Shown: piece by piece, positions 940 through 62,799 of the stretch
Numbering within the stretch: position 1 is the stretch's first letter
How the letters are laid out: each line of letters opens with the position of its first letter
NCBI GenBank assembly: GCA_016790815.1
Contig: JAEUOG010000004.1
Location: 987-64,986 of the forward strand
DNA length: 64,000 nt
From: Dechloromonas sp.
Lineage (GTDB): Bacteria; Pseudomonadota; Gammaproteobacteria; Burkholderiales; Rhodocyclaceae
Direction: 5' to 3'
Position numbers and translations under genes: made by a program
Notes under the pieces: model-generated
What the model was told of the DNA's origin: nothing
Seen by the model: only the letters and a program-made list of their open reading frames with translations
The model's database searches: none

Positions 940-3201
940 TCAGACGGTGGCTTCTGCTTTTTCTTCCTCGAAATCGAGTTTGATTTTGCCGTCCTTGTCG
1001 AGGTCGACCGTAACACGCCCACCGCTGGACAGCTTGCCAAACAACAACTCGTCGGCCAGCGCTGAGCGGATGGTGTCCTGAATCAAGCGAGCCATCGGAC
1101 GGGCGCCCATGAGCGGATCGAAGCCTTTCTCGGCGAGCAGTTCCTTGACCGCATCGGTGAAATGGGCTTCCACCTTTTTCTCGTGGAGCTGTTCCTCGAG
1201 TTGCATCAGGAACTTGTCGACGACCCGCAAGATGACCTCGTGGTCGAGGGGGGCGAAGGAAATTGTCGAATCGAGTCGATTCCGGAACTCCGGGGTAAAC
1301 AGACGCTTGATTTCAACCATCTCGTCGCCGGTCTGACGCGAATTGGTGAATCCCATGTTCGACTTCTGCAGATCGGCAGCGCCAGCGTTCGTGGTCATGA
1401 TGATCACCACGTTGCGGAAATCCGACTTGCGCCCGTTGTTGTCGGTCAGCGTGCCGTGGTCCATGACCTGCAGCAGGATGTTGAAGATATCCGGATGAGC
1501 CTTCTCGATTTCGTCGAGAAGCAGCACGCAATACGGCTTCTTGGTTACCGCCTCGGTGAGCAGGCCGCCCTGTTCGAAGCCGACATAACCCGGTGGCGCG
1601 CCGATAAGGCGGGACACCGCGTGGCGTTCCATGTACTCGCTCATGTCGAAGCGGAGCAATTCAACGCCCAGGCAGTAGGCCAGTTGCTTGGCTACTTCCG
1701 TCTTGCCGACGCCAGTCGGGCCACTGAACAGGAATGAGCCGATCGGCTTGCCGGGGTTGCCTAGCCCCGAACGGGCCATCTTGATGGCCTTGGCCAATGC
1801 ATCGATGGCTTTGTCCTGGCCGAAGACGACAGCCTTGAGGTCGCGATCGAGATTTTTCAGTGCGCCGCGGTCGTCAAGCGTGACATGCTGCGACGGAATG
1901 CGGGCGATCTTGGCAACGATCTCCTCGATATCCGTTTTGTTGATGACTTTTTTCTGCTTCGATTTCGGCAGGATACGCTGCGCTGCACCAGCCTCATCGA
2001 TAACATCAATGGCCTTGTCAGGCAGGTGGCGATCAGTGATGTAGCGTGCCGAGAGTTCGGCAGCCGACGAAATCGCCGTGGCGGAATATTTGATGCCGTG
2101 ATGGGCCTCGAAACGCGCTTTCAGGCCCTTGAGGATTTCTACCGTTTCGGCGACGGAAGGCTCGGTGACATCGATTTTTTGGAAGCGGCGGGAAAGCGCG
2201 CTGTCCTTCTCAAAAATGCCGCGGAATTCGGTGTAGGTCGTCGCCCCGATGCACTTGAGCTGCCCGGACGACAATGCAGGCTTGAGCAGGTTGGAGGCAT
2301 CGAGCGTTCCGCCGGACGCCGAGCCGGCACCAATCAGGGTGTGGATTTCGTCAATGAACAGGATGGCGTGCGGGTTATCCTGCAACGCCTTGAGGACGCC
2401 TTTCAGGCGCTGCTCGAAGTCGCCACGATACTTGGTGCCGGCCAGCAGGGAACCCATGTCCAGCGAATAGACATTGGCCTTGGCCAGGATTTCCGGTACC
2501 TCGCCTTCGACAACCTTGCGCGCCAGACCTTCGGCGATAGCCGTCTTGCCGACACCGGCTTCGCCAACCAGCAGCGGATTGTTCTTGCGGCGGCGGCAGA
2601 GCGTCTGGATTACGCGTTCCAGTTCCTTGTCGCGACCAATCAGCGGGTCGATCTTGCCCTGCAATGCCAGTGCATTGAGGTTGATCGTGTATTGCTCCAG
2701 CGGCCCGGCTTCGCCCTTTTCGCCGTCGGTTTCAACTTCACCCTCGGGAGCCGCCTTGGCTTGTTGTGGCACCTTGCTGATGCCGTGCGAGATGTAATTC
2801 ACCACGTCCAGGCGTGTCACTCCCTGCTTTTGCAGGAAATAGACGGCATGCGAATCCTTTTCACCGTAGATGGCAACCAGAACGTTGGCACCGTTGACTT
2901 CCTTCTTGCCCGAAGACTGGACGTGCAGGATTGCCCGCTGGATGACGCGCTGAAAACCGAGCGTCGGTTGCGTGTCGATGTCGTCGTCTCCGGACACCGT
3001 TGGTGTGTGCTCGTCGATGAAATTGGTCAGATCCTTGCGCAGGGTGTCGGTCTTGGCGCCACAGGAGCGCAGCGCCTCGGCTGCCGAGGGGTTGTCGATC
3101 AGCGCCAGCAGCAGATGTTCGACAGTAATGAACTCGTGGCGTTTTTGACGCGCCTCGACAAAGGCCATGTGCAGGCTGACTTCGAGTTCCTGGGCAATCA
3201 T
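940..3201 (-). CDS. clpA: ATP-dependent Clp protease ATP-binding subunit ClpA
   Basis: Two Walker A motifs ([16 protein letters not shown]), [11 protein letters not shown], 753 aa; directly downstream of clpS. Confidence 0.98.
980..1013 (+). repeat. Dispersed motif copy inside the clpA 3' end
   Basis: TTGATTTT-GCCGTCC-TTGTC-GAG-GTCGAC-CGTAA. Confidence 0.5.
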
Positions 3202-3509
3202 CAGTTTTCCTCCATGATGCAGGCAAGCGGGTGTTGGTGCTGGCGTGCGAATGCAATGACCTGTTCAACCTTGGTTGCAGCAATGTCCCGCGGAAAAATC
3301 CCGCAGACGCCACGACCCTCGTTGTGAACTTTGAGCATGATTTGCGTTGCTTGTTCAGTATCCAGAGAAAAAAACCGCTGCAGAACGGTAATCACGAATT
3401 CCATTGGCGTGTAATCGTCGTTCAGCAGCAGAACCTTGAACATCTTCGGCGGGCCCAGCTTGCTGCGCTGTGTCGCTAGTTGCCCGCCTTCGTGTGCCTT
3501 TGTAGCCAT
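3201..3509 (-). CDS. clpS: Clp protease adaptor ClpS
   Basis: [12 protein letters not shown] motif; TGATG coupling to clpA. Confidence 0.97.
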
Positions 3510-3633
3510 GCGTTCGATTTTATACAGTCCGTCTTAATCTGCAATATAAAACATTGGGACGATTTGGCCGAATTCCAGATCAGGTAAGGGATTTGATCAG
3601 TCCGGAAATGCTGCGCTGCCGCATCGAAACTTG

Positions 3634-3662
3634 TTGACGACAAAATTCGAATGGCGTAGAAA
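3634..3662 (+). promoter_or_regulatory. Putative sigma70 promoter of the csp gene, implying a ~110-nt 5'UTR
   Basis: TTGACG-17nt-TAGAAA. Confidence 0.55.
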
Positions 3663-3781
3663 GCAATCGTGTTTGGCTTCAAGCTGTATCGAGGTTGCTG
3701 TAATGCACCGGGTCACTGAGTTCAAACAGGGAGTCGGGGAGACCCGTAAATTTGTTCGTTTTTTGTAAGAAAGTTGCAAAC

Positions 3782-3985
3782 ATGGCAATCGGTACAGTCA
3801 AGTGGTTCAATGATTCCAAGGGTTTTGGCTTTATCACTCCTGATGATGGCAGCGAAGATCTCTTCGCACATTTTTCCGCCATCAACATGAATGGTTTCAA
3901 GACTCTGAAGGAAGGCCAGAAAGTTTCCTTCGACGTCGTGCAAGGCCCCAAGGGCAAGCAGGCTTCCAATATCCAGAGCACCTAA
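3782..3985 (+). CDS. Cold-shock domain protein (cspD position, divergent from clpS)
   Basis: [12 protein letters not shown] (RNP1), LFAHFSAI (RNP2). Confidence 0.95.
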
Positions 3986-4004
3986 GCTTCGGATAGCAGC
4001 ACGT

Positions 4005-4041
4005 AAAAAAGCCCGTCTGAATTCAGACGGGCTTTTTCTTT
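4005..4041. terminator. Bidirectional intrinsic terminator (csp / soxZ)
   Basis: AAAAAAGCCCGTCTGAATTCAGACGGGCTTTTT between convergent genes. Confidence 0.9.
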
Positions 4042-7128: not shown

Positions 7129-8861
7129 GCTCTGAATTCTCCGCATTTTTTGAGGACAGGCGGGCGCCGGAAGGCGAACCCGCTGCTTGGCGTTTTGATG
7201 GGCTGATCGATTGCCTCGATGTCTGCGATTCGGCCTCCTTGCAGCAGGTGTTGCAGACGCTGCTGAATGATCCGCAGTGGACAGTCGTTGCGCTGGACTA
7301 CGAACTGGGCTATCTGCTCGAGCCCAAGTCCGCGCCACCGGGTTGGTTGCCCGGCAGGCAACCATTGGCCAGATTCTGGCGGTTTGCGAACCGTGTTTCG
7401 CTGACCAAAGACGAGGCATCGCTCTGTCTGACGCGCTGGGGCAGCGGCAGTGCCGGTGTCGGGGCACTGCAGCCTGCCATTGACATGGAAACCTATACTT
7501 CTGCGGTCAACCGGATAAAACGACTGATTTTTGAAGGCGACTGCTATCAGGTCAATTTCACCTTTCCGCTCGAATTCGACTGGTTCGGCTCGCCCTTTGC
7601 ACTCTACGCACGCTTGCGCGAGCATCAGCCGGTTCGCTATGGCGGGTTTGTTGGCGATGATCGGCATGGCCTCGTTTCGCTTTCGCCGGAACTGTTTCTG
7701 GAGCGCCGCGCAGACCGCCTGCTGACCAAGCCGATGAAGGGCACGGCGCCGCGTAGCGAAACGCCGGAACAGTTGCGCAATTCCGAAAAGGACTGCGCGG
7801 AAAACCTGATGATTGTGGACTTGCTGCGCAATGATCTGGGCCGCGTTGCGAAGAAGGGGAGCGTTGTGGTCGAGCGGCTGTTCGATATCGAGGAATACCC
7901 GACGCTATGGCAGATGGTGTCGGAGATTTCGGCCGATGTCGCTGGCCGCAGTTTCGGCGAGATCCTGTGTGCCATTTTCCCCTGCGGTTCGATCACCGGG
8001 GCGCCGAAGATTCGCGCCATGCAAATTGCGGCTGGGCTGGAGAAGGCCGAACGCGGCATTTATACCGGTGCCCTGGGCTGGCTGGCGCCGGATGGCGATT
8101 TTCGGCTCAACGTGGCGATTCGCACACTGGAGTTAGGTGCGGACGGCCGCGGCAAGCTCGGCTTGGGCAGCGGCATCGTCGCTGATTCGCAGCCGGACGC
8201 TGAATGGCATGAGTGTCAGCTCAAGTCGAAATTCCTGCGTGATTGCGATCCGGGCTTGCAGCTGATCGAAACCCTGCGCCGGGATGATGGCGTCTATCCG
8301 ATGTGGGCGGGGCATTTCGCCCGTCTGAAGCGATCGGCAGCGTATTTCGGCTTTCCAGTCGACGAGCAATTGTTGTTCAAGGAGCTGGGGCGGCAGCCGA
8401 CGAAGGGAACCTGGCGTGTTCGCCTGACGCTCGACAAGGCTGGCGCCATGGATGTGCAGGCGGTGGCCTTCGATGGTGCGGCGCCGGAAGTGCGTGTCGC
8501 AGCATTGGCCGAACGGCGTATCGATTCTCGCGATGTGCTGCGTCGCCACAAGACAACGGTCCGGCCGCTTTACGATGCGGCATTGCGCAGCCTGCCGGCT
8601 GACTCGCCGGTTTTCGATCTGGTGTTTCTCAATGAGCGCGGCGAGGTCGCCGAGGGGGCGCGCAGCAATGTCTTTGTCGAGCGCGATGGCGTGTTGCTGA
8701 CGCCGCCACTGGATAGTGGTGCCTTGCCCGGCGTGTTGCGTGCCAGTTTCCTGGCTTCCGGTAAAGCGCGGGAAGCGGTTTTGTGGCCAGATGATCTGGC
8801 CGACGGTTTCTGGCTTGGCAATGCGCTACGGGGCCTGGTGCGCGTTACATTGCAGCGCTGA
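7125..8861 (+). CDS. pabB: Fused aminodeoxychorismate synthase component I / class IV aminotransferase (PabB-PabC); start uncertain (ATA 7125 or TTG 7239)
   Basis: YQVNFT, SPELFL, PMKGT, ENLMIVDLLRND, FPCGSITGAPK, then HKTT, EGARSN, LPGVLR (ADC lyase). Confidence 0.9.
   Translation: MSSEFSAFFEDRRAPEGEPAAWRFDGLIDCLDVCDSASLQQVLQTLLNDPQWTVVALDYELGYLLEPKSAPPGWLPGRQPLARFWRFANRVSLTKDEASLCLTRWGSGSAGVGALQPAIDMETYTSAVNRIKRLIFEGDCYQVNFTFPLEFDWFGSPFALYARLREHQPVRYGGFVGDDRHGLVSLSPELFLERRADRLLTKPMKGTAPRSETPEQLRNSEKDCAENLMIVDLLRNDLGRVAKKGSVVVERLFDIEEYPTLWQMVSEISADVAGRSFGEILCAIFPCGSITGAPKIRAMQIAAGLEKAERGIYTGALGWLAPDGDFRLNVAIRTLELGADGRGKLGLGSGIVADSQPDAEWHECQLKSKFLRDCDPGLQLIETLRRDDGVYPMWAGHFARLKRSAAYFGFPVDEQLLFKELGRQPTKGTWRVRLTLDKAGAMDVQAVAFDGAAPEVRVAALAERRIDSRDVLRRHKTTVRPLYDAALRSLPADSPVFDLVFLNERGEVAEGARSNVFVERDGVLLTPPLDSGALPGVLRASFLASGKAREAVLWPDDLADGFWLGNALRGLVRVTLQR
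7501..7535 (-). repeat. Dispersed motif copy inside pabB
   Basis: Reverse complement TTCAAAAAT-CAGTCGT-TTTAT-CCG-GTTGAC-CGCAG. Confidence 0.7.
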
Positions 8862-8862
8862 C

Positions 8863-8896
8863 TTCAATTTAGGCTGGTTTTTCCGGTTGACCGCAG
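8863..8896 (+). repeat. Dispersed 34-bp motif, strong copy (intergenic, convergent genes)
   Basis: TTCAATTT-AGGCTGG-TTTTT-CCG-GTTGAC-CGCAG. Confidence 0.85.
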
Positions 8897-8927
8897 CATT
8901 CGTCTGCCGCGGCCATCGGGAGAACAA

Positions 8928-9407
8928 TCAGCCGCGCAGCTTGCGCAAATAGATGCCGAGCATCGAGAAAAGCGCGGCGGCAATGCCATAGAAGAAGGAC
9001 CTGGTGACATCGACATCCTGATAATCGAGCAGGATCGGCACTTCGTTTTCGACCGTGTAGCGGATCGTGGTTTGGAAGTGCCAGGAAGACGCCTTGACCT
9101 CGAAAATCCCGTTTTCAATTTTCCACTTGAGCCAGTTGTGTTCTTCCTGAACGTCACCAGCCGGTTCCGCAGGCGTCAGCGAGGTGTAGAGGCCTTGTGC
9201 CTTTGCGTCAGCGAGATCCTTGTAGGCAAAGCCGCAGGTTTCCTTGTTGGCGCAGTTAGCGACCAAGCGGAATTCCGGCTTCCAGACATCGGTTTTCTCT
9301 TTCGGCCACGAGATCATGAAAGCGATGCTCCACACGCCAACCAGCGCTGAAAAAATCATCAGTGCTATGAAAATCTTTGCGAGAAGCCCGCGTTTGTCCT
9401 GAACCAT
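8928..9407 (-). CDS. Hypothetical membrane protein (2 TM, periplasmic loop with CxxxxxC)
   Basis: Clean 159-aa ORF directly after valS, AAGGA RBS, hydrophobic N- and C-terminal helices. Confidence 0.75.
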   Translation of the reverse strand: MVQDKRGLLAKIFIALMIFSALVGVWSIAFMISWPKEKTDVWKPEFRLVANCANKETCGFAYKDLADAKAQGLYTSLTPAEPAGDVQEEHNWLKWKIENGIFEVKASSWHFQTTIRYTVENEVPILLDYQDVDVTRSFFYGIAAALFSMLGIYLRKLRG

Positions 9408-9415: not shown

Positions 9416-12331
9416 TTATTGGTTACCCAGCTTGGCCAACTGGGGCTTGAGTTGTTCCAGCGTCGCCGTGAAACCGGCTACCCGCTGCTTTTCCTGATCG
9501 ATCACGGCGGCCGGGGCGCGGGCGACGAAGCCTTCGTTGGCGAGCTTGCCCTGGGCAATCGAAATCTGCTTTTCGAGCTTCTCGATTTCCTTGGCGAGGC
9601 GTACGCGTTCGGCGGCAACGTCAATCTCCACCTTGAGCATCAGGCGGGTTTCACCGACCACGGCCACCGGTGCCATGGCATCGGCCGGCATGTCGGAAAC
9701 GATTTGTACCTCGGAGAGCTTACCCAGAGCTTGCAGGATCGCTGCGAACTCGGAAATCTCGGCGCCACCACCGGCCACCAGCAGCGGCATGCGCAGGGCC
9801 GGGGAGACATTCATCTCGCCACGCAGGTTGCGCGTCGCGTAGGCCAGGGCCTTGAGGCGCTCGACCTTGGCTTCAGAAGCCGGGTCGATCTTGTACTCCT
9901 CGGCGCGCGGGTAGGCGGCGAGCATGATCGACTCGTGCGTCTTGCGCCCGGCGATCGGCGCGACGGTCTGCCACAGCTCTTCGGTGATGAACGGAATGAG
10001 CGGGTGGGCCAGGCGCAGCACGGCTTCCAGCGTGCGCACCAAGGTCCGGCGGGCACCGCGCTGCTGGGCATCGTTGCCGGTCTGAATCTCGACCTTGGCA
10101 ATTTCCAGGTACCAGTCACAGAACTCGTCCCAGATGAATTTGTAGATGGCCTGGGCAACGAGGTCGAAACGGTAGTCGGTGAAATGCTGTTCGACTTCCT
10201 TCTCGACGCGCTGCAACTGGCTGACGATCCAGCGGTCGGCGAAGCTGAACTCGAGCGGGGCGGAACCGCCGCAGGCCGGGCCGTTTTGCTGGTGTTCTAG
10301 GGCCAGATCGTGGCCTTCGACGTTCATCAGCACGAAGCGCGTGGCGTTCCACAGCTTGTTGCAGAAATTGCGGTAGCCGTCGCAGCGATTCAGGTCGAAC
10401 TTGATGTCGCGGCCGGGCGAGGCAAGGCTGGCGAAAGTGAAGCGCAGGGCGTCGGTGCCGAAGGAGGCGATGCCTTCCGGGAACTCTCTCTTCGTTTTCT
10501 TGGCGATGCTCTCGGCCTGCTTCGGGTTCATCAGGCCGGTGGTGCGCTTTTCGATCAGCGCGTCGAGGCCGATGCCGTCGATCAGGTCAATCGGGTCGAG
10601 CACGTTGCCTTTGGACTTCGACATCTTCTGGCCTTCGCCGTCGCGGATCAGGCCGTGAACATAAACGTGCTTGAATGGAATCTGGCCGGTGATCTGCTTG
10701 GTCATCATGACCATGCGGGCGACCCAGAAGAAGATGATGTCGAAGCCGGTGACCAGCACGGTCGACGGCAAATATTGCTGCAAAATCGGGTTGGCGGCGT
10801 CAATGGCCTCGTCGCCCGTCCAGTCCAGCGTCGAGAACGGCCACAGGGCGGACGAGAACCATGTGTCGAGGACATCTTCGTCGCGGCTCAGCGGTGAGAT
10901 GCCAAATTGAGTGCAGGCCTCATTAAAATTGCCACTCAAAATCCCCGTAGTTAGAGCCAGTGTCTTGTTTTCTGAAACAGGGGCTGCAGAAAGATACTGG
11001 CGATAGGCCTCTTCTTCGTTGTGAGCGACAAAAATCTGGCCGATATCGCCGTACCAGGCCGGAATCTGGTGGCCCCACCACAGCTGGCGGGAAATACACC
11101 AGTCCTGGATGTTGTTGAGCCACTGGTTGTAGGTATTGACCCAGTTTTCCGGGTAGAACTTGATTTCGCCGGAATGGACGACGTCGAGCGCCTTCTCGGT
11201 GATCGACTTGCCGTCGTCGCCAGGCTTCGACATGGCGACGAACCATTGATCGGTGAGCATCGGTTCGATGAGCACATTGGTCCGGTCGCCGCGCGGCACC
11301 TTGAGCTTGTGCTTGTCGGTCTTTTCGAGGATGCCGAGGGCTTCGAGGTCGGCGACAACGGCCTTGCGGGCGTCGAAGCGGTCGAGGCCACGGTATTTCT
11401 CGGGCGCGTTCTCGTTGATCTTGGCATCCAGCGTCAGGATCGAAATCATCGGCAGGCCGTGGCGCTGGCCAACCGCATAGTCGTTGAAGTCATGGGCCGG
11501 CGTCACCTTGACGCAGCCAGTGCCGAATTCGAGATCGACGTAGGAATCGGCAATGATCGGGATTTCGCGATCGGTCAACGGCAGCTTCACCATCTTGCCG
11601 ATCATGTGCTTGTAGCGCTCGTCTTCCGGATGAACCATCACGGCGGTGTCGCCGAGCATGGTTTCCGGACGGGTCGTCGCCACCACCAGGCTATCCGAGC
11701 CATCGGCCAGCGGATAGCGGATGTGCCACATGAAGCCGTCTTCTTCCTCCTGCACGACTTCGAGGTCGGACACAGCGGTATGCAGCTTCGGGTCCCAGTT
11801 CACCAGGCGCTTGCCGCGGTAGATCAGGCCCTCGTTGAACAGGCGGACGAAGGTTTCGGTGACGACCTTGTTGAGGCCGGCATCCATCGTGAAGCGCTCG
11901 CGCTTCCAGTCCGGGCTGGTGCCCATGCGGCGCATCTGCTTGGTGATGGTGTTGCCGGAGTATTCCTTCCATTCCCAGACCTTTTCCAGGAACTTCTCGC
12001 GGCCGAGGTCGTGGCGGCTGATGCCTTGTGCGTCGAGCTGGCGTTCGACGACGATCTGCGTCGCGATGCCGGCGTGGTCGGTGCCCGGTTGCCACAGCGT
12101 GTTGTGGCCGCGCATCCGGTAGTAGCGGGTCAGGGCGTCCATCAGGGTCTGGTTGAAGCCATGGCCCATGTGCAGCGTGCCGGTCACGTTCGGCGGCGGC
12201 AGCAGGATGCAGAAGTTCTCGTCAGGCGCCTTGCTGCGGTCAACGCCAGCAGCGAAGTAATTCTGGGCTTCCCACTCGGGATACCAGCGGCGTTCAATGT
12301 CGGCGGGTTCGAAGGCTTTGGCGAGTTCCAT
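9416..12331 (-). CDS. valS: Valine--tRNA ligase
   Basis: [31 protein letters not shown]-terminal coiled coil. Confidence 0.99.
10756..10789 (-). repeat. Dispersed motif copy inside valS
   Basis: Reverse complement CCGATTTT-GCAGCAA-TATTT-GCC-GTCGAC-CGTGC. Confidence 0.65.
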
Positions 12332-31710: not shown

Positions 31711-31727
31711 GCGATTTTTCCGAATTG

Positions 31728-31754: not shown

Positions 31755-31760
31755 ATTGCT

Positions 31761-36898: not shown

Positions 36899-36902
36899 GC
36901 AT

Positions 36903-36936: not shown

Positions 36937-36951
36937 AAGGCTCGTTTTCAG

Positions 36952-36987
36952 GGCGGCGGGGTAAAATCCGCCGCCTTTGTCATTTTT
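36952..36987 (+). terminator. Hairpin after the Rieske gene
   Basis: GGCGGCGG-8nt-CCGCCGCC followed by TTTGTCATTTTT. Confidence 0.5.
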
Positions 36988-47095: not shown

Positions 47096-47567
47096 TGTCG
47101 GGCGCTGGTACGCGCTGGCCGGGCTGGTTGTTGTACTCGACCAGCTCAGCAAGTGGCTGGTGCTTGAGAACATCCGCTACGGCGAAACGATCTACGTCGC
47201 ACCGTTCTGGAACTGGGTGCTGGCCTTCAACCCCGGCGCTGCGTTCAGCCTTCTGGCTGACCAGCCAGGTTGGCAGCGCTGGTTTTTTACCGTGCTGGCG
47301 CTCGGCGTTTCCGGCTGGATCGCCTTCATGCTCCGCCAGCATCCCCAGCAAAAGCTGCTCTCGCTGGCCTTGACGCTGATCATGGGTGGTGCGCTGGGCA
47401 ACGTCATCGACCGCGTTCGTTTTGGCGCCGTGGTTGATTTTGTCCAATGGCACGTCGCCGGCTACTACTGGCCGGCTTTCAACGTCGCCGATGCTGCCAT
47501 CACGATCGGCGCCGTTTTGCTCGTTATTGAGCAGTTGACCGCAACCAACAAAAAAGAGAATTCCTGA
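47088..47567 (+). CDS. lspA: Lipoprotein signal peptidase
   Basis: [25 protein letters not shown]. Confidence 0.97.
47511..47544 (+). repeat. Dispersed motif copy inside the lspA 3' end
   Basis: GCCGTTTT-GCTCGTT-ATTGA-GCA-GTTGAC-CGCAA. Confidence 0.55.
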
Positions 47568-47998: not shown

Positions 47999-48928
47999 AT
48001 GCAAGTCATCCTCGCCAATCCCCGCGGCTTTTGTGCCGGTGTCGAACGCGCCATCGCCATTGTCGAGCGTGCCCTCGAAAAATTCGGCGCGCCGATCTAT
48101 GTCCGCCATGAAGTCGTGCACAACAAATTCGTCTGCGACGACCTGCGTTCCAAGGGGGCAGTTTTCATTGAGGAATTGAGCGAGGTTCCCTCCGGCAGCA
48201 CCGTGATTTTCAGCGCCCACGGTGTTTCCCAGGCTGTTCGCAGCGAAGCCGAACAGCGCGGCCTGAAGGTGTTCGATGCCACCTGCCCGCTGGTCACCAA
48301 AGTGCACGTCGAGGTCGGCAAGATGCGCAACCAGACCCGCGAAGTCGTCATGATTGGCCACAAGGGCCACCCGGAGGTCGAAGGAACGATGGGCCAGAGC
48401 AACGGGGGAATGTATCTGGTCGAAACGCTGGAGGATGTGGCTGGTTTGCAGGTCACCAATCCGGAAAACCTCTCCTTTGTCACCCAGACGACGCTGTCGG
48501 TAGATGACGCGACAATGGTTATTGATGCCCTCAGGGCCCGATTTCCCGATATACAGGGCCCCAAAAAGGATGACATCTGCTACGCCACGCAGAACCGTCA
48601 GGACGCTGTAAAAGCGTTAGCTGAACAGTGTGATCTGGTTATCGTGGTGGGGAGCCAAAATAGTTCGAATTCACGGCGATTGAGGGAGGTCGCGTTGGCG
48701 AGAGGTATCGATGGTTATCTCGTTGACGGGCCCGACGAAATAGATGTTGAGTGGCTGGTAGGCAAACAATGCATCGGCATCAGCGCGGGAGCATCGGCGC
48801 CGGAAATACTGGTCAACGAAGTAGTTGAGCGCCTTCGTCGTCTTAGTGGAGCCAGCGTGACCCAGCTCCTGGGCAGCGAAGAAAACGTATCGTTTCCTCT
48901 GCCCAGGGAACTCGCTGGAAAAGACTGA
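47999..48928 (+). CDS. ispH: HMBPP reductase
   Basis: [40 protein letters not shown]. Confidence 0.98.
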
Positions 48929-48943: not shown

Positions 48944-49327
48944 CTATTTCCAGCATCCCGTTCCAGAGGATGAGGTTTTCGCTCCCAAGTGAGTGATGCT
49001 GAGCGTGCCGCACTTATCGTTTAACTGGTCGCCCTTGGGGGTGGCCTGGATGGTATAGGTTGTGGCTGTTTGGGCACTGAATGCCAATGTATAGAAACCG
49101 GCGATAGATCCGTCGCAAGCTGTGAGCGCAGCATTGGCATAACTCATGTTTGCCGTGTAGTAACGTTCCATGAATTGGCTGCGTTCGATCATGCAACCCT
49201 CGACGCTCGAGCGCCGTGACTGGCGAGTGTGCTCAAGATAGCTGGGATAGGCAATGCTGGTGATGATTCCAATGATGGCGACGACAATCATCAGTTCAAT
49301 AAGCGTGAAACCCTTGGTTTTGTTCAT
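48944..49327 (-). CDS. pilE: Type IV minor pilin PilE (ComP-like fold)
   Basis: GFTLIELMIVV, YPSY, FMERYY, DKCGTLSI...CW. Confidence 0.92.
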   Translation of the reverse strand: MNKTKGFTLIELMIVVAIIGIITSIAYPSYLEHTRQSRRSSVEGCMIERSQFMERYYTANMSYANAALTACDGSIAGFYTLAFSAQTATTYTIQATPKGDQLNDKCGTLSITHLGAKTSSSGTGCWK

Positions 49328-49330
49328 GGC

Positions 49331-52300: not shown

Positions 52301-52687
52301 TGGCGGCCAAGGTGTTCCATCCTCAGTCGACCAGGGAATATAGGTGACGGCTGGATTGTAGTACTGTGGATTGGTTTGTGGTGAGCGTGCAAATGCGTTG
52401 TAGACATGATTGTCTACCGTTGCAACGTATTGAGGGTAATTGGAATCGCTGTAAACATTGTCTGGTCGCGGAAAGACAAAGTATGAATAGGAGTCTGGCG
52501 TGATTTCCCAATGCATCGACCCCGAGTCATCCAGCACCATCATCACGTTAGGTTCGGCCGTAGTCATCGTATGCAGCGGGACATCCGGGATCGTCGCTGC
52601 CTGCGATAGCGTGCTGAGGCAGGCCAGAGCTATGAATTGGCGCAGGCGGCTCGGTGTTGCCGGGAAATGGCGAGAGGTGGCTTTCAT
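49331..52687 (-). CDS. pilY1: Type IV pilus tip adhesin PilY1
   Basis: vWA MIDAS DDSGS and TDG, LGDLVHS, NDGMLHAF, Ca loop DENGDGFVD, YAGDLKGNVWKFD, GRISWRE; AGGAG RBS. Confidence 0.93.
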   Translation of the reverse strand: MKATSRHFPATPSRLRQFIALACLSTLSQAATIPDVPLHTMTTAEPNVMMVLDDSGSMHWEITPDSYSYFVFPRPDNVYSDSNYPQYVATVDNHVYNAFARSPQTNPQYYNPAVTYIPWSTEDGTPWPPANPTAAFHNPAKTTAGSRNLTIANTETARWEECTTGSNTGCISPALSSKTYWPATYFWHNGGEQFVLGNYLRVEITTGNTYSGHGRAARTDCTNGVCTYDQEIQNFANWYTYYRSRILTARAGIGRAFAAQGTRIRVGFGAINKGSTTIDEVDTRTVVRGVRLFSGTSRGNFFTDLYEHPIPTAGTPLRRALHDVGMYYSRTDVRGPWSTTPGATGGTYPACRQSYTILMTDGYWTEGDAWGATGNAALNSDGNGGPTVTGPDSKSYTYEAKSPFTDGHSATLADVAMHYWKNDLNTDIENKVPFTLRDPAFWQHMTTFGVGFGVSGSVNSTDAFAAIDSGATVTWPDPVGSNPGKIDDLLHASVNSRGDFFNAQNPTEFADSLKKVLDNIAKRISSAASVVANSTRLTTQSKVFSATFNTDNWSGDLQSYSVSSSGLSSTSAWEASKKLPEHGSRKIFTRLSGAGASFIATNAGAIGLSANEINYLRGDQSNELKNGGTLRNRSSLLGDLVHSSPNYDPVTDTVYVGSNDGMLHAFSGETGVETFAYIPGAVLGGLKQLTLANYEHKFFVDGDIAIAGKTTTFLDETYLVATFGRGARGLFGLDITTPASFGTGHVLWEYTGTSDADLGYMLGKPMVARLDDGSTDGLLAAIVGNGYNSTNGKAVLMIFNLKTGALIKKIDTGVGSDNGLSTPGLWDENGDGFVDYVYAGDLKGNVWKFDLTGGSVSGWGSAIKQGTTPKPLFIAKSGTVLQPITAPITLYKNYLSTDPNYQKVFLFFGTGSFFRSGDLTDKSTQTWYGLITTPTSTNESIASDRSTLKQRTIALETTADNLEIRTFSTSTANDMKDLQGWYLDLLPISGTQQGERIITGSTLHRFTEPTLIASSIVPVANDPCELGSGYLNALNAFTGASLTGQFFVFNNGYSGVAGSLNLGIGLTSQAGVLASNDGSGQIVASGSGSKDGKTIASSKINTGIPPQGRISWREIIRN

Positions 52688-52741
52688 GACGGAACTCCTG
52701 CTGGATGGCCGTATAGTTTGCTGGCGATACATGGTTGGGGT

Positions 52742-53308
52742 TTATCGGGAGTAGTAAATCGATTGCAGCATGACATCGGCGCGGCCGGCCCCTGGATTGG
52801 CGCGGGCGGTGACTCGATAGCGGCTGCAATAGTTGTTGGCTTCGCTTGGGTTTGAAGGTTCGCAGGAAAAATCGTTGCCAAGGAACTCAATGATGTAACT
52901 GGCGCTTCCGGCGAGCGAACTGATGCTCACCGTTTTTGCATGGGCCTTCCAGACGCTATCGGTGACATCTTTCGGCCAGTCTGGAGGGCAATCGACATCA
53001 GTCCGGCTGATGTAGCCCGTGGAGGCTTTGGCGATCAGCGTGCTGGAGTTGCATTTCACGCCGTCTGATTTGGCGGGGGCAAGACCGATTGGGCGACCAA
53101 GGGCATCTTCCTCACCGGCACGCAATGCGGTTTCCGCAGCCTGGAAGGCGAGACTGCGGTCCACTGCGCTGGCAGTCATTTTTTCCTCCAGCACGACGGT
53201 GCGGATGCCCGAGAGGCCGAGCAGAGTCATGACAACCAGCATGATCAGGGCGACAACCAGAACAACGCCTGTTTGCCGGTTACGAAAATTATTGAGATGG
53301 ACGGTCAT
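52742..53308 (-). CDS. pilX: Minor pilin PilX
   Basis: GVVLVVAL (no E5), AFQAAE.ALR.GE, YRVTARA, LQS.Y. Confidence 0.9.
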   Translation of the reverse strand: MTVHLNNFRNRQTGVVLVVALIMLVVMTLLGLSGIRTVVLEEKMTASAVDRSLAFQAAETALRAGEEDALGRPIGLAPAKSDGVKCNSSTLIAKASTGYISRTDVDCPPDWPKDVTDSVWKAHAKTVSISSLAGSASYIIEFLGNDFSCEPSNPSEANNYCSRYRVTARANPGAGRADVMLQSIYYSR

Positions 53309-54342
53309 AGACTTTCCCTGGCACGGACCTGGACAGTACTGAACATGTTGCGCTTGACAGTGGCTGCTGTAGATTGAGTCGTATCGATCTTGTCACGGGT
53401 TTCGAGCGTCAGATTGAGATTGGCGACTACCGCAACAGTGGTCGAAGATGTGCTCCAGTCGGTAATACTTGAGGCATCTACATAATTGGCCGCCATGGTT
53501 TTTGCGGCAGGATTCTTGGTCAGGTACTGGATTTGCATGTCCGTCACGTTGTCCACCATTTCTTCGGTGGTATTGTCGGATGGTGTGTAACGGAAGAGCG
53601 AGCGGCCGCCGCGGCTGTTGATGCCGATGTACCAGAATCCACCTTTGAAAGCCACAAAGCTGCCGCCGGTGAAGTCTTCGAGGTAGGCTAGCGGCTTGGT
53701 GCAGCTCAGCGCGGCCATGTCACGCATGCCTAGTCCCTTGGTGCAGTTGCCAGGTGTGCCGGTACCGCTGTTGTGCACAATGGTTTGACTGCTTGAACTG
53801 GCATTGGTGACCTGAAAAATCGACGCGACCTTGTTGTTGCATGCCATCACGATATCTCCCGCTTTCAGTCCGTGATCAGTTGAGCTGACTTTGAATTGGG
53901 CCGAGGTGACTTGATGCTCGACAATCGTCGCGTTGTTGTTGGCCGAACCACTTACCAGCATGATGGCATCAGTATTTGCAACCCGGTTGCCGGTGGCCGA
54001 GCCAAAGGGAACCGGGGTATAGGCTTGGGCGTTGTCGTAGCCGCGAACCGGCGTAGCCCAGCTGTCGGCAATGGTCGGGGTGGCCGATGGGTTGAGCGCA
54101 TTGACGATGACTTGGGCGCCACAGGGATTGGAGCCTGCTTCGCGCAACTCGCGAGACAGTAGTTCGAAGGCGATGCGAGCGTTATCCTGGACACCGGCGA
54201 GATTTTCCGAGGCCCGGAAGGCGTGCTGGTTAGACAGGAATATGTTGCCAACACCAATGATCAAGAGTAACCCGATTACCATCGCGATCATCAGTTCGAT
54301 CAGCGCCAGGCCGCGTTGGGCCAAAAAATGGGCAGGTTTCAT
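53305..54342 (-). CDS. pilW: Minor pilin PilW
   Basis: GLALIELMIA, QDNARIA..L.RELREAG, MQIQY. Confidence 0.9.
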   Translation of the reverse strand: MKPAHFLAQRGLALIELMIAMVIGLLLIIGVGNIFLSNQHAFRASENLAGVQDNARIAFELLSRELREAGSNPCGAQVIVNALNPSATPTIADSWATPVRGYDNAQAYTPVPFGSATGNRVANTDAIMLVSGSANNNATIVEHQVTSAQFKVSSTDHGLKAGDIVMACNNKVASIFQVTNASSSSQTIVHNSGTGTPGNCTKGLGMRDMAALSCTKPLAYLEDFTGGSFVAFKGGFWYIGINSRGGRSLFRYTPSDNTTEEMVDNVTDMQIQYLTKNPAAKTMAANYVDASSITDWSTSSTTVAVVANLNLTLETRDKIDTTQSTAATVKRNMFSTVQVRARESL

Positions 54343-54785
54343 ATGCGGCCTTCCGTGACCAGGGTTTCGGTGCTGGAGCCACCGCCCCGGGAATCGTCCC
54401 ATGTAATGGTGATGGTGCAGGTTCCGGCATTGCAAGCGATGCTTCCGCATGTCGATGCATTGTTGCCGAGCGCTGTTTTCAGATTGGCAATCCAGATGTT
54501 CTGGGTTGATTTGACGAGGGAGGAGCCGCTTGGCACAGAGCAGGTTGCAGACATGGCGTAGCTGTTGGCATTGGCGCGGTCGGCCCTGATGGCGTCAAGA
54601 ATGGAGTAACTCAACATGATGGCCTGAGAGCGTTGCAGGCTGCTCTGATTGTTCTTGAGTGCGTTGGCCTGAAGGCCCGCCAAGCCCAGCAGCCCGACAG
54701 CAAGGATAATGAAGGCGACAAGCACTTCCAACATGCTCGTGCCTCGTTGGCGGTGTGGCGTCTGGAGGGTTATGGTGCGGGGCAT
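54339..54785 (-). CDS. pilV: Minor pilin PilV
   Basis: GTSMLEVLVA..GLLGLAGLQ, RSQA, ITW.D. Confidence 0.9.
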   Translation of the reverse strand: MPRTITLQTPHRQRGTSMLEVLVAFIILAVGLLGLAGLQANALKNNQSSLQRSQAIMLSYSILDAIRADRANANSYAMSATCSVPSGSSLVKSTQNIWIANLKTALGNNASTCGSIACNAGTCTITITWDDSRGGGSSTETLVTEGRI

Positions 54786-55354
54786 GAACTGCTGACTCCG
54801 GTTTTAGGTTCCATGGTGATTTTTCCCGATGCGGTGAGAATAAGGTCGCGAGCGCGACTGTCATTGCTCAGGTAAGACGAGGTGGAGCAGACGCGGATGG
54901 TGCCGGTTTGCGCTGCGTCGCCCATCGTCCAGCTGCGGCCATCGGGACCGAAGGAGATGTATTGTGTGGTGTTTCCGCTGCCTGATATGGATATGCCCGC
55001 TGGTTTGGCGCCAGCGACCGACTGGATGGATTCTCCCCCATCCACGTTCGCAGTGGCGCCGCTACGGGTGATGTCGGTGAAGCTGATCCAGCCTTGCTGC
55101 CAGGTGCTTGAGGTTGCACATTGAGTCCCGCTGCTGCTCATGCAAACCGTGACTCGCTTCCCTTGGCGCAAGGCTTCCATTCGGGCCTGTGCGAGCGAAG
55201 CGACGAGGTCGTTGGTGGCAGCGCTCAGCCGATTGATCGCGATGGTGCTCTGAAAGCTGGGTACGGCAATAGACAGCAATATGGCCAGAATTACGATGGT
55301 GACCATGAGTTCAACAAGGGTAAAGCCCGAGTTGCGAATAGGAGGCTTGAGCAT
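54770..55354 (-). CDS. fimU: Minor pilin FimT/FimU (GspH fold)
   Basis: GFTLVELMVT, AVPSF, ARMEA....VTVC, WQQGW. Confidence 0.85.
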   Translation of the reverse strand: MLKPPIRNSGFTLVELMVTIVILAILLSIAVPSFQSTIAINRLSAATNDLVASLAQARMEALRQGKRVTVCMSSSGTQCATSSTWQQGWISFTDITRSGATANVDGGESIQSVAGAKPAGISISGSGNTTQYISFGPDGRSWTMGDAAQTGTIRVCSTSSYLSNDSRARDLILTASGKITMEPKTGVSSSCPAP

Positions 55355-55570
55355 GTGCGTTTTCCAGAGGGTGCTACTCTTACTTACTGCTGTTTGATTC
55401 GTAGTGTATTCATGATCCAGTGATCCAGGGCGAGTGCTGGAATCAACGGTTGCGTTGTGGCGACAGATGGTATTTTTGCCGTGTGGCATCATCGCAGCTT
55501 GAGGATTTGTTTTGATTTTATGTGTGTGCGTGCTAAACTTGTCGTTTTGGATTTTCTCTGGATTTAATTC

Positions 55571-55840
55571 ATGGCCAATAGCGCACAAGCCCGCAAGCGC
55601 GCCCGTCAAGCTGACGGGCAGCGTTCCCATAACGCCAGCCTGCGTTCGACCCTGCGTACCGCTATCAAGCGCGTTCGTCAGGCGATCGAAGCCGGTGACA
55701 AAGCCGCCGCACAGGGCGTCTTCCAGCAATCCGTTGCGGTTCTTGACCGCATTGCTGACAAGAAGATTGTTCATAAGAACAAGGCTTCACGCACCAAGAG
55801 CCGTCTGTCTGCCCAGATCAAGGCGCTTGCTGCTGCCTGA
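55571..55840 (+). CDS. rpsT: 30S ribosomal protein S20
   Basis: [24 protein letters not shown]. Confidence 0.99.
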
Positions 55841-55909: not shown

Positions 55910-56206
55910 CTACTTTTTTTCCAGTGAGCAGACGCCGTCGATGATTTGAAGATCGTTGTCTTGGGCGAAGTTGAGCATGAACCGATAGGCCATCGGTTCT
56001 ACTTCGCCGAGGCGGCCGTCGACGAAAACAGCTTTTTCGCCGTTGTAATCACCTGGTCCGACATACGGAGAGTACTTCATCTTGCGCTCGGCGCCGAAGG
56101 CGGACATGACGCCGCACAGGCGTTCAGCCCAGTCACTGGGGCGAAATTTCTTGCCTTGCTTGGTGAGGCCGACAATGATGAATGTGGTCGAGTCTGTAGT
56201 TGTCAT
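55910..56206 (-). CDS. DUF3579-type conserved hypothetical protein
   Basis: GLT..GK.FRPSDWAERL, FAQDNDL. Confidence 0.8.
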   Translation of the reverse strand: MTTTDSTTFIIVGLTKQGKKFRPSDWAERLCGVMSAFGAERKMKYSPYVGPGDYNGEKAVFVDGRLGEVEPMAYRFMLNFAQDNDLQIIDGVCSLEKK

Positions 56207-56451: not shown

Positions 56452-57624
56452 ATGTCGCATGTCATGAATACCTACGCCCGGTTGCCGGTGGCTTTCAGCC
56501 ATGGCCAGGGCAGCCGGATTACCGATGCCGAAGGTAAGGAGTATCTGGATGCGTTGTCCGGGATCGCTGTTTCAACGCTCGGTCATGCTCATCCCAAGCT
56601 GGTGGCTGCAATAGCTGCTCAGGCTGGACGTGTGTTGCATACCTCAAATCTTTACGGCATTCCGACGCAAGACAAGTTGTCCGACAAGTTGGCCGCGCTT
56701 TCCGGCATGCAGGAGATTTTTTTCTGTAATTCTGGTTGCGAGGCGAACGAAGCTGCGATCAAGTTGGCCCGTTTCTACGGGCACAAAAAGGGTATCGAGA
56801 CGCCAACCATCATCGTGATGGAAAAGGCTTTCCATGGCAGGACGATGGCAACGCTCTCGGCAACGGGAAATCGTAAGGCGCAGGCGGGTTTTGAGCCCCT
56901 GGTGTCGGGTTTTGTCCGTGTTCCGTATGACGATCTGGATGCGATCAAGGCGGTTGCCGAGCATAACCAGAATATTGTCGCTGTCATGCTGGAAATTATT
57001 CAGGGTGAGGGCGGTATTCATCTTGCGTCCGCTGAATTCCAGATGGGTGTTCGTCAGTTGTGCGACGAGCATGGCTGGCTTCTGATCTGCGATGAGGTTC
57101 AGTGCGGCATGGCGCGTACTGGCAAGTGGTTCGGGTACCAGCATGCCGGCATTCAGCCCGATATTGCGACCTTGGCCAAGGGGCTGGGTTCGGGGGTGCC
57201 GATCGGCGCCTGCATGGCAGGGGGCAGGGCCGCTGGTTTGTTTGGTCCGGGCAACCATGGTTCGACTTTTGGTGGCAATCCGTTGGCCTGCACGGCTGCA
57301 TTGACGACGATTGAAACCATCGAGCAGGACGGCTTGATGGCGAACGCGGAAAAGGTCGGGGTGCTGATCCGCAAACTCTATGCGGAGGCTTTGGCTGGGG
57401 TTGCAGGCGTTGTCGAGATTCGCGGCCATGGCTTGATGATCGGTATCGAGCTTGATCGCCCATGCGGCGAACTGGTTGGCAAGGCGCTGGCGGCTGGGTT
57501 GTTGATCAACGTGACGGCTGACAAGGTCGTTCGCCTGTTGCCACCGCTGACATTTAGCGAAATTGAGGCAAAAGAGCTGGTCGACCGCAGCGTGCCGTTG
57601 ATCAAGGCTTTTTTGGCGGGGTAA
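56452..57624 (+). CDS. argD: Acetylornithine aminotransferase
   Basis: NSGCEANEAAIK, FHGRT, QGEGG, DEVQ.G, AKGLG, HGSTFGGNP. Confidence 0.95.
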   Translation: MSHVMNTYARLPVAFSHGQGSRITDAEGKEYLDALSGIAVSTLGHAHPKLVAAIAAQAGRVLHTSNLYGIPTQDKLSDKLAALSGMQEIFFCNSGCEANEAAIKLARFYGHKKGIETPTIIVMEKAFHGRTMATLSATGNRKAQAGFEPLVSGFVRVPYDDLDAIKAVAEHNQNIVAVMLEIIQGEGGIHLASAEFQMGVRQLCDEHGWLLICDEVQCGMARTGKWFGYQHAGIQPDIATLAKGLGSGVPIGACMAGGRAAGLFGPGNHGSTFGGNPLACTAALTTIETIEQDGLMANAEKVGVLIRKLYAEALAGVAGVVEIRGHGLMIGIELDRPCGELVGKALAAGLLINVTADKVVRLLPPLTFSEIEAKELVDRSVPLIKAFLAG

Positions 57625-61072: not shown

Positions 61073-61080
61073 GCTGACTG

Positions 61081-61114
61081 CTGCGGTCTACCCTAAAAAC
61101 CGGGTCAAAATGAA
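61081..61114 (-). repeat. Dispersed 34-bp motif, strong copy (intergenic yajQ/GATase)
   Basis: Reverse complement TTCATTTT-GACCCGG-TTTTT-AGG-GTAGAC-CGCAG. Confidence 0.85.
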
Positions 61115-61140
61115 AACGGGCTGTTTGTGCAGCCCGCTTT
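61113..61140. terminator. Terminator between convergent yajQ and GATase genes
   Basis: AAAA-CGGGCTG-6nt-CAGCCCG-CTTT. Confidence 0.6.
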
Positions 61141-61148
61141 CTATTGCG

Positions 61149-61871
61149 TCATAGGATTTTTCGGTCGAGTCCCTTGATCCACACCGAGTAAAGCTGTTCC
61201 GAAAGCTGTCGCATGGCAGGAAGTCTGTCTGAAATTTCCGCCTGCATCGCTTCCGGCGTTTGGGCGCTGGGCAGATCGGCAACGGCAACTGCCTCGTTGG
61301 CCCATTGCTCGCACCACGTGGCAATCATTTCCGGCGTCATCTCGACGTGGCATTGCATGGCGAGGTGAGGGCCCATTGCGAACATCTGGTTGGCGCAGTA
61401 GCCATTGGCCAGCAGGCGGGTAGCGCCCGTCGGGATACTGAACGTTTCGCCATGCCACTGGAAAACCGTACCGTTCTTGCCAGCGAAGTCGCCAAGCCAG
61501 TGGCGGGCGATGTCATTGTCTTCGCCGTGGGCTCCGCTCCAGCCGATTTCCTTGACTGGATTGCGCGTGACCTGCCCGCCCAGCGCCTTGCTCATCAACT
61601 GTCCGCCAAGGCAATGGCCGATGACCGGCACGTCCTTCGCCACCGCTTCGCGAATCAGCTCGCATACGCATTCTATCCACGGCAGCGGATCATTGACGCT
61701 CATGGGGCCGCCCATGAAACAGAGGCCGGAGAAACCGTCGATACTTGCCGGTACTTCAGCACCCTCGTCAACGGCAATCAATGTCCATGGAATCCCTTGC
61801 TGCTCAAGGAATATGGCAAAATAGCCCGGACCTTCAGTGGGGGAGTGGCGAAAGATGGCAACAGGGTGCAT
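61149..61871 (-). CDS. Type 1 glutamine amidotransferase
   Basis: MGGPMS, GHCLGGQ (catalytic Cys), QWHGETF, QCHVE. Confidence 0.9.
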   Translation of the reverse strand: MHPVAIFRHSPTEGPGYFAIFLEQQGIPWTLIAVDEGAEVPASIDGFSGLCFMGGPMSVNDPLPWIECVCELIREAVAKDVPVIGHCLGGQLMSKALGGQVTRNPVKEIGWSGAHGEDNDIARHWLGDFAGKNGTVFQWHGETFSIPTGATRLLANGYCANQMFAMGPHLAMQCHVEMTPEMIATWCEQWANEAVAVADLPSAQTPEAMQAEISDRLPAMRQLSEQLYSVWIKGLDRKIL

Positions 61872-61890
61872 GACGGCGTTGGTGTTCAGA

Positions 61891-62532
61891 GTGGCGAAGC
61901 GTCATTTTACGCTGCTTGGCCTGTTGGCGTTGATGCTGCCTGCGGCCGGAATGGCACAGGATGTCGGGCTGGCCGGGATCATGGGCTCCAAGGCAATGCT
62001 CATGATCAACGGCGGGGAGCCGCAGGCTGTGCCGCTTGGCAAAACGGTGGATGGCGTCAAGCTCGTTTCGATTCAGGATGATCAAGTTACTATCGAGATT
62101 GGCGGGCGAAAGCGTCCCTTGCGTGTTGGCCAACATGCCGTTGGCGTTTCCGGCGGTGACGGCTCGGACAAGATCGTGATGACGGCCGATATTCAGGGGC
62201 ATTTCTATACCACCGGAACAGTGAATGGTACGTCGGTTCGCTTCGTCGTCGATACCGGCGCAACCACCATTGCACTGGGACCGAGTGATGCCCGCCGGAT
62301 CGGTTTGGATCTGCGTCAAGGTCAGCGCGGGTTGACGAACACCGCCAATGGAACCGTGGTTGTCACGCGCGTTCCGCTCGATACCGTCAGAATAGGCGGC
62401 GTTACATTGCACAATGTCGAAGCGGTTGTCCTGCCATCTGAAATGCCGATTGCCCTGCTGGGCATGAGTTTTTTGAACCGTATGGAAATGCAACGTGACG
62501 GCAGTACCATGATACTGAAAAAAAGATTTTAG
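61891..62532 (+). CDS. Clan AA (retropepsin-like) aspartic protease, TIGR02281-type; start uncertain
   Basis: Signal peptide, GHF, VDTGAT, TANG, LLGMSFL. Confidence 0.88.
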   Translation: MAKRHFTLLGLLALMLPAAGMAQDVGLAGIMGSKAMLMINGGEPQAVPLGKTVDGVKLVSIQDDQVTIEIGGRKRPLRVGQHAVGVSGGDGSDKIVMTADIQGHFYTTGTVNGTSVRFVVDTGATTIALGPSDARRIGLDLRQGQRGLTNTANGTVVVTRVPLDTVRIGGVTLHNVEAVVLPSEMPIALLGMSFLNRMEMQRDGSTMILKKRF

Positions 62533-62541
62533 GAGAGAGAG

Positions 62542-62799
62542 ATGCCGCAGAAAGATCAGGAAATTGCCCTGTTGCGTGATGAGTTGGAAATGCTGATGGG
62601 GGAGCGGCAATCGCTGCTGCGCGTTGCAGGTGCTGCGGCAGTCATGATCGCCAGTATGGACAGCAAGCGTTTGCCGGTAGGTGCCATTGAGTCGGCCGAT
62701 CTGGTGGCCACGACGATCAACGATCTCGCCGAAGAAACGCTTCAGGATGCATTGGCTGCGGTCAACGCCGAAATTGAGGAAGATTCCGGCGCCGCATGA
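62542..62799 (+). CDS. Hypothetical acidic helical / coiled-coil protein
   Basis: AGGAG RBS; ATGA coupling to the Nudix gene. Confidence 0.75.
   Translation: MPQKDQEIALLRDELEMLMGERQSLLRVAGAAAVMIASMDSKRLPVGAIESADLVATTINDLAEETLQDALAAVNAEIEEDSGAA

Follow-up and report, generated by a model that had tools for sequence, protein, structure and literature searches.

A 64-kb stretch of the draft genome of an Azonexus/Dechloromonas-type bacterium (contig C40:987-64986, hereafter the window) raises the question of why a single word should recur there, again and again, on both strands. The word is about 37 bp long and consists of a GTYGACCG-YRG-CA core with two T-rich tracts ahead of it that lie one helical turn apart. 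An earlier note on this DNA listed 18 copies and suggested that they might serve as tags for the uptake of self DNA, comparable to the uptake signal sequence (USS) of the Pasteurellaceae, or as sites for a nucleoid-organizing protein. From an analysis of the entire genome (2.545 Mb in 81 contigs, 76% complete, ~60% G+C) and of related species, we favor a role for the motif as a USS-type signal for DNA uptake, although this assignment must be weighed against several observations that do not fit it well.

A sharply defined word spread over both strands

The motif stands out against chance in the window. The degenerate pattern given by the earlier note, when permitted up to three mismatches, matches eight times in the window and not once in 100 dinucleotide shuffles, and the shorter word GTYGACCGCAG at up to one mismatch is found 19 times where 3.9 ± 2.0 matches are expected. 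Across the genome, no 11-mer is more over-represented than GTYGACCGCAG, whose 378 copies are divided between the strands as 186 and 192. A sequence logo of these 378 copies lengthens the core to GTYGACCGCAGCA and reveals a T-rich tract at positions -9 to -5, followed 11 bp farther out by a second tract (AWWTT) at -20 to -16. The spacers that separate the tracts and the core carry little or no information, and the spacing itself is fixed.

An iterated weight matrix of 40 columns, built from the whole genome and used with a cut-off of ≥14 bits, relaxes the 3′ part of the core to GTYGACCG-Y-R-G-n-A. This matrix identifies 896 sites, 639 of which reach ≥25 bits. A count above a null model had been set beforehand as a test, and genomes simulated with Markov chains of order 1, 3 or 5 contain only one to five such sites, which corresponds to a ~200-fold or greater excess in the real genome. 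The existence of a recurrent motif with fixed spacing and variable spacers, as originally described from the window, is thus borne out by the shuffles, the 11-mer counts, the logo and the matrix sites. The word is also sharply bounded, as evident by the 451 perfect 8-bp cores present in a T-tract context versus 46 for all single-mismatch cores together. Cores carrying the palindromic GTCGAC and the non-palindromic GTTGAC are used about equally.

The 896 sites are strand neutral (451 plus, 445 minus). Their orientation is the same at negative local GC skew (208/206) as at positive skew (190/181), and every contig longer than 4 kb carries the motif, most of them at 0.15-0.6 sites per kb. There is consequently neither replichore polarity nor confinement to a single chromosomal domain, two patterns that the earlier note had contrasted with an uptake role. 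The mean density is one site per 2.8 kb, and the sites are spaced more regularly than random placement would produce. Once overlapping matches are merged, the coefficient of variation of the gaps between sites is 0.71, compared to 0.97 ± 0.035 for random positions, and none of 500 random trials gave a value below 0.877. True inverted pairs are few in this genome, since most close pairs simply reflect the palindromic core being scored on both strands.

Gene context was evaluated with our own rough gene calls (85% coding), and the resulting genic and intergenic figures are therefore approximate. By this measure, 69% of the sites are located inside genes and 31% between them, with 1.37 sites per kb in convergent gaps, 0.76 in tandem gaps and 0.48 in divergent gaps. 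Many intragenic copies in the window had been thought to sit near the 3′ ends of genes, but no such concentration exists genome-wide, where the counts for successive tenths of the gene are roughly flat (73, 81, 73, 57, 58, 59, 55, 50, 55 and 54). Intragenic cores are read in all six frames, with strong frame preferences, to yield different peptides (AAVD/N, L/STAA, VDRS, CCGQ/R, LRS and RPQ). Therefore, the word is not a protein motif, and here the conclusion reached from the window extends to the whole genome.

The longest stretch that lacks the motif spans 20.7 kb (contig C35:7511-28184) and has a G+C content of 51%. It holds a polysaccharide biosynthesis cluster with genes for a glycosyltransferase, a DegT-type aminotransferase, a Polysacc_synt_2 protein and an ATP-grasp ligase, and the cluster was probably acquired horizontally. 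More generally, site density climbs with local G+C content from 0.18 to 0.46 per kb (Spearman 0.46), even though the motif is itself partly A/T-rich. Depletion in genomic islands, another test set in advance, is therefore observed both in this polysaccharide island and in low-GC bins as a whole.

Sites arise in place and differ in spelling between species

The flanking genes lspA, fkpB and ispH are 80-97% identical to those of metagenome-assembled genomes (MAGs) named Betaproteobacteria HGW-6, Azonexus sp. and Dechloromonas sp. These identities place the genome in the Azonexus/Dechloromonas genus of GTDB, in keeping with the Rhodocyclales-like host that had been surmised from the sequence.

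Two copies of the motif reside in ileS, and this gene allows the origin of individual sites to be followed. We collected ileS together with 20 kb of downstream sequence from 40 other species of the genus and prepared a codon alignment of all 41 species. Both copies occupy fixed alignment columns, and there are no indels at either site. A score of ≥20 bits is reached by the copy at 45464-45503 in 22 further species of the sample and by the copy at 46891-46930 in 20, whereas motif-free species carry GC-rich codons at the same positions. At 46891-46930, an identical 14-residue peptide is encoded by the carriers G001 and G048 and by the non-carrier G073, and only synonymous positions differ. Sites arise in place by point substitution, mostly synonymous, and not by insertion. 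The indel-free columns and the encoding of one peptide by different codons exclude the insertion of a mobile element, and they indicate that the force responsible acts on the DNA itself.

Once present, the sites are conserved. A total of 304 kb was aligned from the nearest sampled relative, G053, whose IleS protein is 98% identical to that of our genome and whose overall nucleotide identity is 87.6%. Among the 115 sites with an aligned counterpart, 96 (83%) still reach ≥14 bits in this relative. Core positions 0-7 are 90-99% identical, compared to 85.8% for the 60-bp flanks. From the flank identity we calculate that only ~29% of 8-bp cores would have stayed intact if they had diverged like their surroundings.

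The distribution of the motif among species is patchy. In an exact 13-mer search, about half of the 24 species sampled from the genus have the word in abundance, whereas the 148 genomes that represent 88 other genera of the family have 0-3 copies, and 16 other families of the order have 0-2. To accommodate differences in spelling, 60 species of the genus were searched with a dialect-tolerant pattern (two W4 tracts, 8 free bases and ACCGYRR), for which the reversed pattern served as the control. Forty species are carriers, with 78-745 matches versus 0-27 for the control, two are intermediate (28 and 37 matches), and the remaining 18 are at background (1-14 matches). A first classification with the stricter pattern WWWW-N7-WWWW-N4-GTYGACCG had wrongly scored G066, G043 and G074 as motif-free, and all three were corrected by the looser pattern. 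Unbiased k-mer counts uncover altered cores in two of these species, GACCGTAGCATT in G066 and GTGCACCGCAGCAGT in G043. The same type of count reveals no over-represented dispersed word in 400 kb of G016 or in 120 kb each of G073 and G024, which confirms these three of the 18 background species as motif-free. In the 400 kb of the motif-free G016 (C1:100001-500000), the 12-mers CACCATCACCGA and ACCCTGACCGAC each occur 27-28 times, but they probably derive from a large, tandemly repetitive gene rather than from a dispersed signal.

Carriers differ also in the 3′ extension of the core, which reads CAGCA in the genome studied here, TGGCAA in G003, TAGCA in G001 and TAA in G076. The only part that is constant across dialects is ACCG, or CGGT on the other strand. 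At least five spellings exist within the genus, and two more are present in a second genus. On a tree of IleS, carriers and non-carriers are interleaved, which implies at least six changes of state under the first classification, made before G066 and G043 were recognized as carriers. This tree is based on a single gene, and IleS may itself recombine.

The second genus emerged when the tolerant pattern was applied to the 148 genomes from the 88 other genera, of which 147 are at background. The exception, G147 (genus g87, 1.8 Mb, 44% G+C), yields 966 matches versus 112 for the control. Its motif consists of TTTTT-S-AAAAAAA (TTTTTSAAAAAAA), about six bases, and then GTTKACCGTGGAAAA, and it recurs about once per 1.2 kb. 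Inverted pairs are common in this genome, as 21 pairs with members 41 bp apart make up about a quarter of the 169 copies examined. A congener, G216 (33% G+C; contigs C1-C6), carries TCTCGTGGAAAA instead, about once per kb. A second repeat in G147 is unrelated to the uptake-like motif: the 14-mer CCAGAGCACATATC, along with overlapping words, is found 27 times in the 200 kb at C1:1-200000.

Known uptake sequences and competing explanations

In the Pasteurellaceae, a USS combines a 9-bp core with two AT-rich segments at approximately helical-turn spacing (Redfield 2006, PMC1626085), and two types have been described, Hin (AAGTGCGGT) and Apl (ACAAGCGGT(C)) (PMC1626085). When our motif is written in the same orientation, it reads TGCTGCGGTCRAC, 4 bp, AAAAW, 6 bp, AWWTT. 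One side of a short, invariant core thus carries two A/T-rich segments separated by about one helical turn, and this layout is specifically that of the Pasteurellaceae USS. The two systems are also alike in having hundreds to a thousand copies, equal orientations, regular spacing, mostly genic locations, a mutational origin and clade-specific spellings. Strand neutrality and spacing that is more regular than random have been described for USS and for the DNA uptake sequence (DUS) of the Neisseriaceae (PMC1626085).

The core shared with USS, which was part of the original suggestion, holds in the dialect of this genome only. Here TGCGGT is common to TGCTGCGGTCRAC and the Hin type, GCGGTC is common to TGCTGCGGTCRAC and the Apl 10-mer, and GCGGT is present both in the global USS consensus (ANNNGCGGT) and in the main spelling of our motif (TGCTGCGGT), except that a T occurs where USS has its first A. 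However, other dialects read CACGGT or TACGGT, such that CGGT alone is constant. For this reason the GCGGT match may be due to chance, and we make no claim of homology. Additional differences from USS are evident. By our own reading of the published layout (PMC1626085), the A/T tracts begin ~5 bp farther from GCGGT in our motif. The core is longer, with a near-palindromic inner part (CGGTYGACCG), and its density is lower than that of USS. Moreover, the host belongs to a betaproteobacterial genus and not to the Pasteurellaceae, given that the flanking genes are nearest to those of Azonexus, Dechloromonas and Betaproteobacteria MAGs.

The DUS of Neisseriaceae (AT-GCCGTCTGAA and its dialects) is recognized by the minor pilin ComP, which serves as its receptor (PMC3630211, PMC3868556). 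Our motif resembles DUS in being hyper-abundant and specific to a lineage, with dialects that distinguish related species (PMC3630211), in the preference of intergenic copies for the 3′ ends of genes near terminators, and in the presence of a ComP_DUS-family pilin gene in the genome and indeed in the window. The resemblance does not extend to the sequence. The core GTYGACCGYRGCA has no similarity to DUS, being neither GCCGTCTGAA nor a dialect that keeps the CTG, and DUS lacks flanking A/T tracts (PMC1626085). Inverted pairs, which are frequent in DUS and act there as terminators, are rare in this genome, and its ComP-family pilin, a hypervariable PilE of the ordinary kind, shows no co-variation with the motif. 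The window does include one strong, bidirectional terminator-like hairpin (4006-4037) whose arms, CCGTCTGAA and TTCAGACGG, form an inverted pair that matches the Neisseria DUS over nine bases. As a DUS-like signal this is probably a coincidence, since the genome contains CCGTCTGAA 20 times, close to what base composition predicts.

Sharp definition, abundance, strand neutrality, even spacing, origin in place, conservation, dialects and presence in scattered lineages together constitute the published signature of uptake sequences (PMC1626085; for dialects, PMC3630211). We assign a probability of about 0.55 to a function of the motif in DNA uptake, as a signal of the type found in Pasteurellaceae (USS). 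By this proposal, some part of the machinery for competence or type IV pili would prefer DNA that contains GTYGACCG-YRG-CA to other DNA, and passage of the bound DNA through the outer membrane would be eased by bending or kinking that the two phased T-tracts promote. DNA from the same species would thereby enter the cell and recombine more often. Such a bias amounts to a molecular drive that, through point substitutions, would create copies of the word at all positions where coding and regulation tolerate them and would afterwards maintain these copies. The uptake machinery as reader of the motif and the bending role of the T-tracts are inferred. For a USS-like tag as first suggested, the abundance, polarity, spread, island and competence-gene tests are all favorable, whereas no receptor can be tied to the motif.

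This last point weighs against an uptake signal and keeps our estimate from being higher, as does the near-palindromic inner core. Neither USS nor DUS has an inner core of this kind, which would likewise be appropriate for a cytoplasmic protein that binds DNA as a dimer. A third reason for caution is that our full-text literature searches turned up no account of natural transformation for either Dechloromonas or Azonexus. With regard to competence genes, which the earlier note recommended looking for, the genome does encode ComEC, DprA, ComM, three PilT-family ATPases and a minor-pilin operon, but searches of the 76%-complete assembly found neither a small ComEA nor TfoX, and no PilQ that passed the family cut-off.

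One receptor candidate is found in the window itself, in a minor-pilin operon (fimU-pilV-pilW-pilX-pilY1-pilE; 48944-55774, minus strand) located between ispH (47999-48928) and a DUF3579 gene (55910-56206). Its PilE protein matches the Pfam family ComP_DUS (PF16732) at 82 bits. However, this family is represented in 54 of the 60 species, carriers and non-carriers alike, and the closest homologues of the protein include pilins encoded at the PilE position in Pseudomonas, Xanthomonadaceae and Chromatiaceae. The cassette is also hypervariable, with 25-56% identity even where flanking genes are 85-98% and IleS 98% identical (in G053, for example, PilE is 45% and PilY1 32% identical to the proteins of our genome), and nine motif-bearing species lack it at this locus. 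It looks as though the cassette is replaced by recombination in its conserved flanks. A motif core that is conserved over 40 species needs a conserved reader. Given that the family is independent of the motif, that the homologues are ordinary PilE proteins of many Pseudomonadota and that the cassette is hypervariable, we do not take this pilin as evidence for a receptor of the DUS type. Two other candidates, the ComEA-like genes and a second pilin-like gene on contig C28, likewise occur both with and without the motif. Consequently, none of the three candidates co-varies with it.

Other pilin-related genes are scattered through the genome. The pilin-like protein encoded at C28:41464-42123 is 93-94% identical in G066 and G010 but only ~58% identical in G053, despite the 98% identity of IleS in that species. 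Pilin genes would seem to be passed between species. The larger cluster at C28:27297-42123 carries genes for a secretin, a PilT-like ATPase and two pilin-like proteins, with an adenylate/guanylate cyclase gene between the pilins, and may encode a second pilus or secretion system. A cluster resembling a type II secretion system is present on contig C60, and pilin-like genes are found on C28 and C44.

The best surviving alternative is that the motif is the site of a chromosome-organizing or other abundant, sequence-specific DNA-binding protein that has nothing to do with uptake, and that it is kept by selection on chromosome function. Even spacing, strand neutrality and strong conservation of sites would fit such a role, as would a near-palindromic inner core with phased A/T tracts, which are typical of bent protein-DNA complexes, and the failure of any uptake receptor to co-vary with the motif is readily accommodated. 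Known chromosome-organizing systems generally use tens of sites, or degenerate ones, whereas the genome holds ~900 sites of 25-45 bits. Nor would such a protein be expected to leave 18 of 60 species of one genus at background level while interleaved with carriers on the IleS tree, or to change the spelling of its site between close species. Depletion in low-GC islands is predicted by uptake drive and not obviously by chromosome structuring. For these reasons we regard a nucleoid-organizing protein as less likely than an uptake signal, and rather unlikely overall.

A considerably more doubtful explanation links the motif to a methyltransferase or restriction-modification system, or to a bias in DNA repair or gene conversion, as has been proposed for the cyanobacterial word HIP1 (GCGATCGC). 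The core does contain GTYGAC, a subset of the GTYRAC palindrome class, and a patchy distribution among species would fit a mobile restriction-modification system. HIP1, moreover, is likewise a hyper-abundant, conserved and quasi-periodic word of uncertain function (abstract of PMC13756078). However, HIP1 is a perfect 8-bp palindrome that is recognized by methylases, whereas the conserved unit in our genome is asymmetric, extends over ~37 bp and includes two phased T-tracts and a 3′ extension, which is far beyond the target of a methylase. The roughly equal use of GTCGAC and GTTGAC cores also speaks against recognition of this kind.

It is very improbable that the copies are small mobile or copied elements, such as miniature inverted-repeat transposable elements or repetitive extragenic palindromes, or that they are a by-product of protein sequence or codon usage. 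The motif is dispersed and often intergenic beside terminators, as such elements can be, but the ileS alignment contradicts this view, and genic sites, which are the majority, show no indels relative to motif-free orthologues. Neither version is compatible with variable spacers at fixed spacing or with the use of six reading frames, and simulations of Markov order 5 alone yield only 4-5 sites versus 896. Finally, a polar chromosome signal of the Chi, KOPS or matS type would also be an over-represented oligomer, but such a role is effectively excluded by the independence of orientation from GC skew and the even spread over contigs longer than 4 kb.

Copies in the window and implications for DNA uptake

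The matrix recovers all 18 copies of the earlier list, with the same positions and strands, and adds three more to give a total of 21 sites in the window (Table 1). The setting described for the five best copies is also confirmed. Three are in gaps between convergent genes, one is in a tandem gap and one is near the 3′ end of a gene, and strong terminator-like hairpins adjoin three of the best intergenic copies, with the motif lying outside each hairpin.

Table 1. Matrix sites of the uptake-like motif in the window (coordinates are window positions).
Feature	Position	Strand	Score (bits)	Remarks
Motif copy	979-1018	+	29.4	980+ in the earlier note
Motif copy	7496-7535	-	37.0	7501- in the earlier note
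Motif copy	8862-8901	+	45.3	Gap between convergent open reading frames (ORFs) 7239-8861(+) and 8928-9407(-)
Motif copy	10751-10790	-	21.2	Intragenic
Motif copy, extra	12229-12268	-	19.3	Perfect core, weak T-tracts
Motif copy, A-tract variant	18112-18151	-	31.2	
Motif copy, extra	22587-22626	+	20.5	
Motif copy	26662-26701	-	30.4	
Motif copy	31760-31799	+	40.4	Convergent gap; immediately after terminator-like hairpin 31726-31755
Motif copy	33275-33314	-	19.1	Intragenic
Weak motif copy, extra	35433-35472	-	15.2	
Motif copy	36902-36941	+	44.8	Tandem gap; immediately before terminator-like hairpin 36950-36977
Weak motif copy	37579-37618	-	16.7	
Motif copy	39399-39438	+	39.7	Near 3′ end of ORF 39333-40547(-)
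Motif copy in ileS	45464-45503	-	30.1	
Motif copy in ileS	46891-46930	+	40.9	
Motif copy	47510-47549	+	22.1	Intragenic
Motif copy in PilY1-like gene	49766-49805	-	21.2	
Motif copy	57556-57595	+	22.8	Intragenic
Motif copy	61076-61115	-	37.4	Convergent gap; abuts terminator-like hairpin 61117-61136
Motif copy	62751-62790	-	26.0	Intragenic

For decades, uptake sequences have been a curiosity of two families, represented by the USS of Pasteurellaceae and the DUS of Neisseriaceae, and the receptor for USS is still unproven. They were not known outside these families in 2006 (PMC1626085), and the abstract of a 2025 preprint describes them only there. Our searches of the full-text literature found no paper that links uptake sequences with Rhodocyclaceae or Dechloromonas. 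We see about even odds that the motif represents a third, independent family of uptake signals in free-living Rhodocyclaceae, encompassing Azonexus/Dechloromonas and at least one genus with small genomes, with USS-like architecture, several dialects, repeated gain or loss between close species, and a receptor that is not of the ComP type.

If this is true, then self-DNA recognition in transformation would extend beyond two host-associated families and would not depend on a single type of receptor. A USS-like signal in an environmental genus, some members of which are cultured, would offer a comparative design for finding the receptor, in which ~40 carriers, 18 close non-carriers and the dialects can be set against one another. 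Models in which uptake sequences reflect either drive or benefit would become testable outside pathogens. Bacteria of the Azonexus/Dechloromonas group are among those relevant to wastewater treatment, and practical tags for transforming them might follow.

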